The translations under genes were made by a program, and so were the position numbers. Source: Eledone cirrhosa (taxonomy: Eukaryota). Taken from it: a stretch of DNA of 64,000 nucleotides. Shown one piece after another: positions 17,153-30,080 of this stretch; positions within the stretch are counted from its first letter, which is position 1, and each line of letters starts with the position of its first letter. Below the pieces are notes generated by a model, which had not been told where the DNA came from, searched no databases, and saw only the letters and a list, made by a program, of their open reading frames with translations. The DNA is taken from the NCBI GenBank assembly GCA_964016885.1, contig OZ024742.1, forward strand, positions 191,084,001-191,148,000. The letters run 5' to 3'.

Positions 17153-17938
17153 CTCTCTCTCTCTCTCTCTCTCTCTCTCTCTCTCTCTCTCTCTCTCTCT
17201 CTCTCTCTCTCTCTCTCCTCTCTATATATATATATATGATAATAAGGGCGCTGCGGAGTTGCAAATGGGTTACATATGAAAAAAGTTTGTCCTTCATCAG
17301 TGATCTTCCAACCATCATAGGCATTTCATCGATATATAAATATATATATATATATGTATGAATATATATATATATATATGTATGAATATATATATTTAAA
17401 TATATATATATATATATATATACAGTCAGAATGAGGGGGGTTATTGATATATAATTATTTGTGTAAATGTGTAGATGAATGTAGGCGTCTCAATCACAGT
17501 ATAATCAAATGTATATATGAAGTTAAAAATACATTACATGAGTCAGAGTATGTGTGTGACTTACCTCCGAAAAGGACGGATAATTTTGAAGCTTAAAAAT
17601 TATATCTACTCTAGAAATAGGAATCAATAATATTTTCAGAAATTCAATTATGTACTGCAGACGTTTGACGAAAACTTAGTAACTATTTAAGGTTTCTAAA
17701 ACGAATATACACACATATATATATATATATATATATATATATATATATATATATATATATATATATGTAATTATATATATATATATATATATATATATAT
17801 ATATATATATATATATATATATACATATATATATATGAATATAGACATAGAATATTCGAAAATATTCTGTATGTTTATAATAAACATTTTGAAGACCTAA
17901 TCGCTATAGAATAGAATACGTCACGTATTACAATTAGA

Positions 17939-18025
17939 TTCTCGATAAAAGCAAGGGAAGTAATCTACGCGTTTCATTCTTGTTAGAAATCATCAGGACT
18001 ACATATCCAGTGCTTTTATCGAGAA
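17939..18025 (-). ncRNA. Type I hammerhead ribozyme; identical minus-strand copies at 18249, 18559, 18869, 19179, 19489 and 28467
   Basis: Reverse complement of the motif at 19744-19830. Confidence 0.85.
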
Positions 18026-19743
18026 TGACACAGCTAGAGACTTATAGAATACTTAGCTGTGTACAGGAACTGGTTTGAAAGAGCGGTTGCCGGTCCGGCA
18101 GAAATTAGAAATTGGAATAAATGCTCTGAAATAGCGATATATATGTGAATATAGACATAGAATATTCGAAAATATTCTGTATGTTTATAATAAACATTTT
18201 GAAGACCTAATCGCTATAGAATAGAATACGTCACGTATTACAATTAGATTCTCGATAAAAGCAAGGGAAGTAATCTACGCGTTTCATTCTTGTTAGAAAT
18301 CATCAGGACTACATATCCAGTGCTTTTATCGAGAATGACACAGCTAGAGACTTATAGAATACTTAGCTGTGTACAGGAACTGGTTTGAAAGAGCGGTTGC
18401 CGGTCCGGCAGAAATTAGAAATTGGAATAAATGCTCTGAAATAGCGATATATATGTGAATATAGACATAGAATATTCGAAAATATTCTGTATGTTTATAA
18501 TAAACATTTTGAAGACCTAATCGCTATAGAATAGAATACGTCACGTATTACAATTAGATTCTCGATAAAAGCAAGGGAAGTAATCTACGCGTTTCATTCT
18601 TGTTAGAAATCATCAGGACTACATATCCAGTGCTTTTATCGAGAATGACACAGCTAGAGACTTATAGAATACTTAGCTGTGTACAGGAACTGGTTTGAAA
18701 GAGCGGTTGCCGGTCCGGCAGAAATTAGAAATTGGAATAAATGCTCTGAAATAGCGATATATATGTGAATATAGACATAGAATATTCGAAAATATTCTGT
18801 ATGTTTATAATAAACATTTTGAAGACCTAATCGCTATAGAATAGAATACGTCACGTATTACAATTAGATTCTCGATAAAAGCAAGGGAAGTAATCTACGC
18901 GTTTCATTCTTGTTAGAAATCATCAGGACTACATATCCAGTGCTTTTATCGAGAATGACACAGCTAGAGACTTATAGAATACTTAGCTGTGTACAGGAAC
19001 TGGTTTGAAAGAGCGGTTGCCGGTCCGGCAGAAATTAGAAATTGGAATAAATGCTCTGAAATAGCGATATATATGTGAATATAGACATAGAATATTCGAA
19101 AATATTCTGTATGTTTATAATAAACATTTTGAAGACCTAATCGCTATAGAATAGAATACGTCACGTATTACAATTAGATTCTCGATAAAAGCAAGGGAAG
19201 TAATCTACGCGTTTCATTCTTGTTAGAAATCATCAGGACTACATATCCAGTGCTTTTATCGAGAATGACACAGCTAGAGACTTATAGAATACTTAGCTGT
19301 GTACAGGAACTGGTTTGAAAGAGCGGTTGCCGGTCCGGCAGAAATTAGAAATTGGAATAAATGCTCTGAAATAGCGATATATATGTGAATATAGACATAG
19401 AATATTCGAAAATATTCTGTATGTTTATAATAAACATTTTGAAGACCTAATCGCTATAGAATAGAATACGTCACGTATTACAATTAGATTCTCGATAAAA
19501 GCAAGGGAAGTAATCTACGCGTTTCATTCTTGTTAGAAATCATCAGGACTACATATCCAGTGCTTTTATCGAGAATGATTATAAACATACAGAATATTTT
19601 CGAATATTCTATGTCTATATTCACATATATATCGCTATTTCAGAGCATTTATTCCAATTTCTAATTTCTGCCGGACCGGCAACCGCTCTTTCAAACCAGT
19701 TCCTGTACACAGCTAAGTATTCTATAAGTCTCTAGCTGTGTCA

Positions 19744-27976: not shown

Positions 27977-28403
27977 ATATATATATAGATATTATATATA
28001 TACGGGGTAACAAATTATTGTTATAGGTAGTCCACTTAAGTGTAGTCCAGTTATGGTACTCCGGGTAGTGGATGATATCAACGCTTGGCTAAGTTTGACT
28101 CAACAAGGCGTTTGCATAGTGATGTTGCGAGTACGCTCTAATTCCTATGTTGTAAACACTTGGAGTACTTCAGAGAAACAATTGTCAGCAATGAGATTAA
28201 AAACCTTTTTTGTATAGCAAACCGTGTCACTCTTCTTTCCCAATTTATATATATATACATATATATATGAATGCATATATATATATATATATATATATAT
28301 ATATATATATATATATATATATGTATATATATATATATATATATATATATACATATATATATATATATATATATATATATATATATATATATATATATAT
28401 ATA

Positions 28404-30080
28404 TATAATAAACATTTTGAAGACCTAATCGCTATAGAATAGAATACGTCACGTATTACAATTAGATTCTCGATAAAAGCAAGGGAAGTAATCTACGCGT
28501 TTCATTCTTGTTAGAAATCATCAGGACTACATATCCAGTGCTTTTATCGAGAATGACACAGCTAGAGACTTATAGAATACTTAGATGTGTACAGGAACTG
28601 GTTTGAAAGAGCGGTTGCCGGTCCGGCAGAAATTAGAAATTGGAATAAATGCTCTGAAATAGCGATATATATGTGAATATAGACATAGAATATTCGAAAA
28701 TATTCTGTATGTTTATAATAAACATTTTGAAGACCTAATCGCTATAGAATAGAATACGTCACGTATTACAATTCTATGTCTATATTCTATGTCTATATTC
28801 ACATATATATCGCTATTTCAGAGCATTTATTCCAATTTCTAATTTCTGCCGGACCGGCAACCGCTCTTTCAAACCAGTTCCTGTACACAGCTAAGTATTC
28901 TATAAGTCTCTAGCTGTGTCATTCTCGATAAAAGCACTGGATATGTAGTCCTGATGATTTCTAACAAGAATGAAACGCGTAGATTACTTCCCTTGCTTTT
29001 ATCGAGAATCTAATTGTAATACGTGACGTATTCTATTCTATAGCGATTAGGTCTTCAAAATGTTTATTATAAACATACAGAATATTTTCGAATATTCTAT
29101 GTCTATATTCACATATATATCGCTATTTCAGAGCATTTATTCCAATTTCTAATTTCTGCCGGACCGGCAACCGCTCTTTCAAACCAGTTCCTGTACACAG
29201 CTAAGTATTCTATAAGTCTCTAGCTGTGTCATTCTCGATAAAAGCACTGGATATGTAGTCCCCTGATGATTTCTAACAAGAATGAAACGCGTAGATTACT
29301 TCCCTTGCTTTTATCGAGAATCTAATTGTAATACGTGACGTATTCTATTCTATAGCGATTAGGTCTTCAAAATGTTTATTATAAACATACAGAATATTTT
29401 CGAATATTCTATGTCTATATTCACATATATATCGCTATTTCAGAGCATTTATTCCAATTTCTAATTTCTGCCGGACCGGCAACCGCTCTTTCAAACCAGT
29501 TCCTGTACACAGCTAAGTATTCTATAAGTCTCTAGCTGTGTCATTCTCGATAAAAGCACTGGATATGTAGTCCTGATGATTTCTAACAAGAATGAAACGC
29601 GTAGATTACTTCCCTTGCTTTTATCGAGAATCTAATTGTAATACGTGACGTATTCTATTCTATAGCGATTAGGTCTTCAAAATGTTTATTATAAACATAC
29701 AGAATATTTTCGAATATTCTATGTCTATATTCACATATATATTGCTATTTCAGAGCATTTATTCCAATTTCTAATTTCTGCCGGACCGGCAACCGCTCTT
29801 TCAAACCAGTTCCTGTACACAGCTAAGTATTCTATAAGTCTCTAGCTGTGTCATTCTCGATAAAAGCACTGGATATGTAGTCCTGATGATTTCTAACAAG
29901 AATGAAACGCGTAGATTACTTCCCTTGCTTTTATCGAGAATCTAATTGTAATACGTGACGTATTCTATTCTATAGCGATTAGGTCTTCAAAATGTTTATT
30001 ATAAACATACAGAATATTTTCGAATATTCTATGTCTATATTCACATATATATCGCTATTTCAGAGCATTTATTCCAATTT
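28404..30080. repeat. 310-bp HHR-containing tandem array B: about 1.2 units minus-sense (28404-28773), then about 4.2 units plus-sense (to 30080)
   Basis: Same monomer as array A, with only three differences noticed (28585, CC insertion at 29261, 29743). 13-bp duplication ATTCTATGTCTAT at the switch point; (TA)n on both sides. Confidence 0.95.

Follow-up and report, generated by a model that had tools for sequence, protein, structure and literature searches.

The DNA studied here, referred to as the window, is a stretch of 64,000 nucleotides (nt) from Eledone cirrhosa (assembly GCA_964016885.1, contig OZ024742.1, positions 191,084,001 to 191,148,000), in which two arrays of a 310-nt repeat with a hammerhead ribozyme in every unit are embedded in (TA)n runs. 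The arrays belong to a real, young family of retrozymes, a class of element that is already known and whose suggested mobilisation by Penelope-like elements (PLEs) is already in print. An earlier note made from the letters of the window had counted 13 hammerheads, eight in array A and five in array B, at a 310-nt period, which agrees with the periods of 310 at 99-100% matches returned by Tandem Repeats Finder. Its description of the two as tandem arrays holds for the units, yet neither array is plain: each consists of a minus-strand arm joined head-to-head to a plus-strand arm, with the 3' ends pointing outward into (TA)n, and the hammerheads are distributed over the strands as six minus and two plus in array A and one minus and four plus in array B. 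The span given for them, 17836..30080, does contain both, but an unrelated 519-bp array lies inside it as well. The features of the two insertions are as follows.

17715..17835, no strand: left flank of insertion A, (TA)n, putative target
17836..19578, minus strand: left arm of insertion A, 5.6 monomers with 6 hammerheads
19578..20283, plus strand: right arm of insertion A, 2.3 monomers with 2 hammerheads
19767..19809, plus strand: type I hammerhead with helix I, CUGAUGA, a weak helix II, GAAA and a palindromic ACGCGU helix III
19804..20113, plus strand: reference monomer of 310 nt, running from one cut to the next (predicted circle)
19933..19975, plus strand: monomer positions 130-172, two putative reverse transcriptase (RT) start sites with the ~35-nt tail between them
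28246..28403, no strand: left flank of insertion B, (TA)n
28404..28773, minus strand: left arm of insertion B, 1.2 monomers with 1 hammerhead, one substitution
28771..30080, plus strand: right arm of insertion B, 4.2 monomers with 4 hammerheads, one substitution
30081..30191, no strand: right flank of insertion B, (TA)n

Monomer numbering begins at window position 19804. Insertion A is typical of the family: its left arm, which is identical to the reference monomer (0 differences), extends from monomer position 130 at the outer, short end to position 248 at the inner end, and its right arm from position 85 at the inner end to position 170 at the outer, tailed end, followed by a TA repeat, with the two arms overlapping by 1 nt. 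In insertion B the junction is a 13-nt duplication, and the right arm, which carries a CC insertion adjoining one hammerhead core, terminates at position 167 (tailed). The outer end of its left arm is atypical, at position 90, and is one of three exceptions to the end rule described below.

Structure of the monomer and its hammerhead

The CUGAUGA, GAAA and GUA core is present as the earlier note claimed, with the predicted cut after 19803, and the palindromic helix III it reported is the 6-nt sequence ACGCGU. Helix I likewise pairs as GUAGUC/GAUUAC (pair probabilities 0.85-1.0) and continues through an 8x6 internal loop, although the extension stem beyond the loop measures 16 bp rather than the 15 originally given. 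All four inverted repeats listed for the monomer are seen in the sequence, and the strong self-complementarity ascribed to it is reflected in a fold better than that of 100 out of 100 shuffles (z -4.4). The monomer is low in GC (~0.33) and non-coding, the longest stop-to-stop frame in the concatemer being 59 codons. A search against Rfam, suggested at the outset with Hammerhead_1 as the model, gave no window match at the gathering score; Hammerhead_1 was not among the 10 matches listed, and the best sub-threshold match was Hammerhead_HH9 (19.2 bits versus 52 for gathering, E 0.061).

With type I hammerheads in consecutive tandem units and a unit that lies within 170-400 nt, has a GC content below 45-50%, and is non-coding and self-paired, the element has sequence properties of a non-LTR (long terminal repeat) retrozyme. 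The monomer contains no open reading frame (ORF), whereas an autonomous PLE would carry an RT plus GIY-YIG ORF, and it differs from plant LTR retrozymes, which are marked by LTRs with a type III hammerhead, a PBS and a PPT, in its type I topology, its tandem units and its lack of an LTR pair.

Insertions are mirrors with fixed outer ends

A pattern search for the exact 43-nt core found 4,177 occurrences in the 3.0 Gb genome and 0 for the reversed control. The short end followed by TA occurs 1,240 times genome-wide, so there are at least 1,240 insertion ends; these counts document copies dispersed as expected of a mobile non-LTR retrozyme. The tailed-end pattern was found 754 times on the forward strand, the reverse-strand count being inflated by overlapping matches. 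As the mean insertion comprises 9.5 units, rough scaling puts the family total at ~12,000-25,000 monomers. Four of six listed sequencing runs were covered. One of them, X2, has the look of genomic DNA from this organism; the other three (X1, X3 and X4), with one 340-nt contig each, were read as trace genomic DNA because other genomic repeats are also present in them, and have no bearing on expression or horizontal transfer.

From the fetched loci we parsed 113 insertions, most of them in the first 220 Mb of contig C1. Set aside were L033 (assembly gap), the second copy in L061 (same junction as the first), the sister-family fragments in L074, L078, L186 and L192, and L043, L044 and L193 (no element looked for or found). 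Minus-plus mirrors account for 97 of the 113, the other 16 being single arms, and no convergent (plus-minus) arrangement was seen. Of the 94 mirrors in which both ends are visible, 91 pair an end at monomer positions 124-140 with a second one ~35 nt further on, at 153-173; the modes are 130/139 (short) and 165 (tailed). The sequence is TA-rich on both sides in 86 of these 94, and any target duplication is unreadable inside (TA)n. The inner ends, by contrast with the fixed outer ends, are variable. Arm lengths do not depart from an exponential distribution (Kolmogorov-Smirnov p 0.14, n 186), with a mean of 1.5 kb and a range from 72 nt to 14 kb, and exceed one unit in 170 of 186 arms.

The arms meet with an overlap of 0-5 nt at 64 of 95 junctions, and the remainder contain short inserts and one insert of 272 nt. 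This 272-bp filler (L036:2799-3070) is 96-98% identical to a family clustered on contig C25, of which the 39 other best-scored copies all lie at 19-24 Mb; one C25 locus gave no Rfam match. The filler is likely a captured template. An antisense template that primes its own copying could also give rise to a head-to-head junction; such self-priming has been put forward to explain the head-to-head palindromes of rotifer Penelope elements (PMC3846280), and the monomer does offer many hairpins. Such a fold-back predicts inner ends in near-equal phase, whereas they lie within 10 nt of each other in 7 of 95 junctions versus 6.4 by chance, which leaves self-priming extremely unlikely.

In published descriptions, PLE insertions contain a copy that is inverted and 5'-truncated, have a tail of 30-40 bp on one side and occupy (TA)n targets (10.1101/2021.04.23.441226). 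Both target strands were seen to be nicked and extended by a PLE protein, and the tail corresponds to the distance separating two internal sites at which RT starts (PMC11167929). An inverted copy (97/113), a one-end tail of 30-40 nt (91/94) and an AT-rich target (86/94) are what the 310-nt family has in common with non-autonomous PLEs. The earlier note had proposed a young retrozyme of the non-LTR kind that a borrowed RT puts back into the genome, a proposal consistent with all tests, and the two-armed layout together with the fixed ends now indicates PLE enzymes as the RT. We therefore regard PLE-type integration of this retrozyme family as very probable.

Evidence for one RNA template per insertion

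Over 1,058 passages of arms across the cut site, 3 of 190 inner ends fall no more than 3 nt away from it, versus 4.3 expected. Singleton changes at monomer positions 306-5 number 1 versus 5.5 expected, so there is no error excess at the cut. The two arms of an insertion are clonal: they agree at four common variant sites in 88 of 89 mirrors, where random template pairs would match with probability 0.12, and among 104 insertions there are 39 haplotypes, 29 of them seen once. Furthermore, there are 17 variants that each occur at a single locus and are fixed there across the two arms, in 3-25 copies. Continuity across the cut, a single template per event and a monomer bottleneck all argue for a monomer circle, which, as judged from genomic sequence, is probably the main template.

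A cut linear monomer on which the RT jumps repeatedly from the 5' end to the 3' end would imitate a circle, yield clonal arms and require an active ribozyme, and seven of the elements do carry a fixed extra base at a distance of two bases from the cut. However, neither a pile-up of inner ends nor an excess of errors is found at the cut, and ~1,058 near-perfect jumps would be required, making repeated jumping a rather improbable source of the arrays.

A different template is suggested by locus L152 (509-6901), where both arms carry two outermost copies of one haplotype and then another haplotype. At L066 and L075, too, the two arms are heterogeneous at matching ranks, a pattern that requires either a multimeric template or a concerted template switch, since a single monomer circle cannot give it. 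The L152 junction is unique in the genome, so that no other locus in the assembly can have been its source; mixing is also seen at L083 and L041. L152, L066 and L075 speak for twin priming by the same PLE on a source-array transcript that is linear and uncut (or circular and oligomeric), with no rolling; the arms would then simply reproduce a series of monomers. Such a template would explain the scarcity of stops at the cut equally well and fits an in vitro PLE study in which hammerhead cleavage was dispensable and unprocessed RNA was the main substrate (PMC11167929). By itself, however, it cannot fix a private variant in 22-25 copies over two arms, and 17 private variants of this sort were counted; it also leaves the selection on the ribozyme described below without a reason. 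It also predicts up to ~40 pairs of rare variants matched in rank between arms (0.16 singletons per monomer across 271 monomer equivalents covered by both arms), an upper bound because the singleton rate includes later mutations and junction artefacts, whereas 2 pairs were seen (4 of 98 occurrences). As an account of the family the uncut multimer is thus unlikely, and it probably accounts for a minority of events.

Amplification at the DNA level, through in-place growth of short insertions by unequal exchange or through rolling-circle replication of a DNA circle, would make the hammerhead a passenger. Exchange after insertion does occur, as evidenced by scattered shared variants within the very long arms of L070-71 and L190, and local expansion from a PLE end is the proposal favoured in 10.64898/2026.07.22.740005, where a PLE origin is argued from co-occurrence and similarity to PLE pseudo-LTRs (pLTRs). 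We nevertheless consider this very unlikely for the 310-nt family, as it predicts neither fixed outer ends with a one-sided tail and constant polarity, nor private variants common to inverted arms, nor selection on an RNA structure.

Selection on the ribozyme fold and older sister families

Of 14 substitutions in the hammerhead and its stem that have been transmitted, being fixed in an insertion, 13 preserve the fold, whereas 5 of the 33 singletons there do so (Fisher p 7e-7); this tally does not include three types of fixed indel. No transmitted substitution lies in the hammerhead core. This supports a function of the fold during transmission and bears only indirectly on the predicted self-cleavage.

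Older sister families have monomer positions 59-235 in common with the 310-nt unit at 67-80% identity and use the same end signal, with 1,032 tailed ends. Sister retrozyme families of ~315-330 nt were observed at L215-L244, L078, L114 and L187, with the end signal kept and hammerheads that are different, and one sister lineage has both C3-G8 and U3-A8 cores. The covariation that the earlier note had proposed to look for is seen in helices I and II across 17 chosen hammerheads of the 310-nt family and its older sisters, though it is not an independent count because the rows are related. Pair 3-8 is C-G in 7 of them and U-A in 10. Covarying pairs were counted on a motif-anchored table rather than on a MAFFT alignment of these sequences, in which helix III had slipped out of register.

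Coding PLEs of the same genome

A young coding PLE of the same genome has a 3.53-kb unit that encodes 784 aa with a CxCX5C motif and carries a hammerhead of the U3-A8 variant described in PMC4209133. Its anatomy resembles that of the 310-nt family: most of 20 stretches show mirror insertions, tandems of entire units, flanks of TA and a spacing of 80 nt between the two ends. Copies show 0-3.3 differences per kb within a locus versus a median of 4.6 between loci, the within-locus comparison including a few pairs that are the same copy fetched twice. At L115-L116, L122-L123 and L125-L128, coding PLEs form three to four or more whole 3.5-kb tandem units that are near-clonal within a locus. The 784-aa protein was not recognised by Pfam at E 1e-4 and has at least 120 homologues, mostly unnamed. 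Two of the three coding families were assigned to the Hydra type by the CxCX5C motif; the families were followed to their ends or up to 1.5 kb, and the ends of the third were not reached. A Neptune-type fragment was rejected as a partner of the 310-nt element, its hammerhead being different, and no ORF attached to sister-family elements was found at 30 loci. According to the review PMC7761336, no motif reveals the partner of a retrozyme.

Several PLE-derived families are present in the window itself. At 43045-45860 lies a decayed Hydra-type PLE with ~91% amino-acid identity to the young intact copies, a U3-A8 hammerhead-like motif near 45680-45765 and an insert resembling a short interspersed nuclear element at ~45010-45200.

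A model for the birth of the arrays

Reverse transcription of retrozyme circles by long interspersed nuclear elements (LINEs) or PLEs has been proposed (PMC7229834). For the 310-nt family we think it likely that each array is one insertion, written by a PLE enzyme that nicks both (TA)n strands and copies one 310-nt RNA, probably a circle, from both ends. In such a cycle an array would be transcribed, adjacent hammerheads would pair via ACGCGU and release a monomer by the predicted cleavage, and a host ligase would close the monomer into the predicted circle. The PLE protein would then bind near monomer positions 130-170 and cut both (TA)n strands, and each 3' end would prime at one of the two internal start sites, leaving a tail on one side only. 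Both RTs would circle the same RNA, displacing their cDNA and stopping at random after 1.5 kb on average, and the two cDNAs would finally be joined through 0-5 nt of microhomology.

Several observations weigh against this model. Besides the in-register heterogeneity at three loci and the in vitro use of unprocessed RNA discussed above, helix II is weak in the main haplotype, with a U.U at 10.1-11.1 and pair probabilities of 0.13-0.16 (one common variant restores the pair), and of 9 retrozyme dimers predicted in Xenopus just 1 proved able to cleave in vitro (10.64898/2026.07.22.740005). PLE RT start sites were alike on both strands in vitro (PMC11167929), and the inner ends of the arms deviate mildly from uniformity (Rayleigh p 0.009). 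The three coding families and ~1.15 Mb of loci yielded no autonomous PLE with sequence in common with the 310-nt unit, and the best-studied coding family has an 80-nt tail versus ~35 nt in the 310-nt family. There is also a selection bias, in that 33 of the 113 insertions were chosen on both ends and are therefore no test of the end rule; in the subsets chosen otherwise the pairing of a short with a tailed end is seen in 10 of 11 insertions chosen by their ribozyme and in 42 of 43 chosen on the short end alone.

We lean, with considerable reserve, towards the broader view that the arrays record the Penelope cycle directly: two RTs primed from opposite (TA)n strands chase each other round one ribozyme-made RNA circle. 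Coding PLEs, whose copies are likewise clonal within a locus, would owe their pLTRs, inversions, tails and tandems of entire units to this cycle too. If this is true, circular RNA would be a normal intermediate of hammerhead-bearing PLEs and animal retrozyme arrays would be born multimeric. The origin of tandem and inverted PLE insertions, the role of PLE hammerheads and the enzyme that moves animal retrozymes are matters described as open in the cited papers. With over a thousand fresh insertions, the 310-nt unit provides countable footprints for the PLE mechanism, and it would serve as a minimal in vitro substrate whose start sites are predicted at monomer positions ~130 and ~165. Rolling-circle target-primed reverse transcription that is processive over as much as 14 kb would have implications for RT-based genome writing as well.

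Other features of the window and genome

Between insertions A and B, window positions 23090-27975 hold ten tandem units of 513-529 bp, each with CTGATGAGG; they are not hammerheads because the GAAA core is missing. The sequence that precedes this array, at ~22360, resembles a Helitron-type end. Further short hammerhead-like motifs lie at 45880-46430 and also at 16630, 31424 and 59602, one such motif sitting in a small mirror element between TA runs. A 42-bp satellite of ~99 copies with extreme strand skew occupies positions 1-4145. Elsewhere in the genome, clusters of haemocyanin domains at C1:173.7-173.9 Mb and C26:21.9-22.0 Mb fit about five gene copies at two loci. A haemocyanin unit of this genome scores 821 bits against PDB 1js8 (octopus), 710-714 bits against 6r83 and 4yd9 (squid) and less than 500 bits against the remaining haemocyanin chains listed, which supports the earlier note's 'cephalopod' and, more narrowly, an octopod.

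Comparison with known systems

Literature searches, with subscription papers and supplements outside their scope, returned no paper on a cephalopod retrozyme or on a mirror and tail footprint. For the giant squid, 235 Rfam hammerhead matches are reported in PMC6962438, whose account of them adds nothing on the 310-nt family; the same holds for PMC9977147. The animal non-LTR retrozymes of coral, mussel and axolotl (PMC7229834) and of Xenopus and other animals (10.64898/2026.07.22.740005) resemble the 310-nt element in their non-coding, low-GC, self-paired tandem unit of ~300 nt with one type I hammerhead per unit and a weak palindromic helix III, and in the presence of PLEs in the same genome. 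Both papers treat retrozymes as tandem repeats, and word searches of their text gave no inverted arms, tail or target preference. Circles have been demonstrated in coral, mussel and axolotl (PMC7229834), whereas the 310-nt unit is known from genomic sequence alone.

The endonuclease-positive PLEs of the Hydra, Neptune, Naiad and Poseidon clades (10.1101/2021.04.23.441226, PMC11167929, PMC3846280) have an inverted 5'-truncated copy, tandem copies, a 30-40 nt tail at one end, a (TA)n target and a hammerhead upstream of the 3' end, as does the 310-nt family. Most Chlamys PLEs, by contrast, are described as being without hammerheads, and non-autonomous Chlamys elements such as MRC1 match an autonomous partner at the 3' end (10.1101/2021.04.23.441226). 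The 310-nt element differs from the endonuclease-positive PLEs in having no ORF and no sequence match to a coding PLE that we could find; as its unit is only 310 nt, one arm holds up to ~45 units.

Twin priming by L1, in which two target ends prime on one RNA, produces a divergent inversion as in the mirrors described here. L1 primes on the poly(A) tail and at an internal site that varies, and its product falls short of one unit, whereas in the 310-nt family both sites are fixed and the great majority of arms run beyond a full unit.

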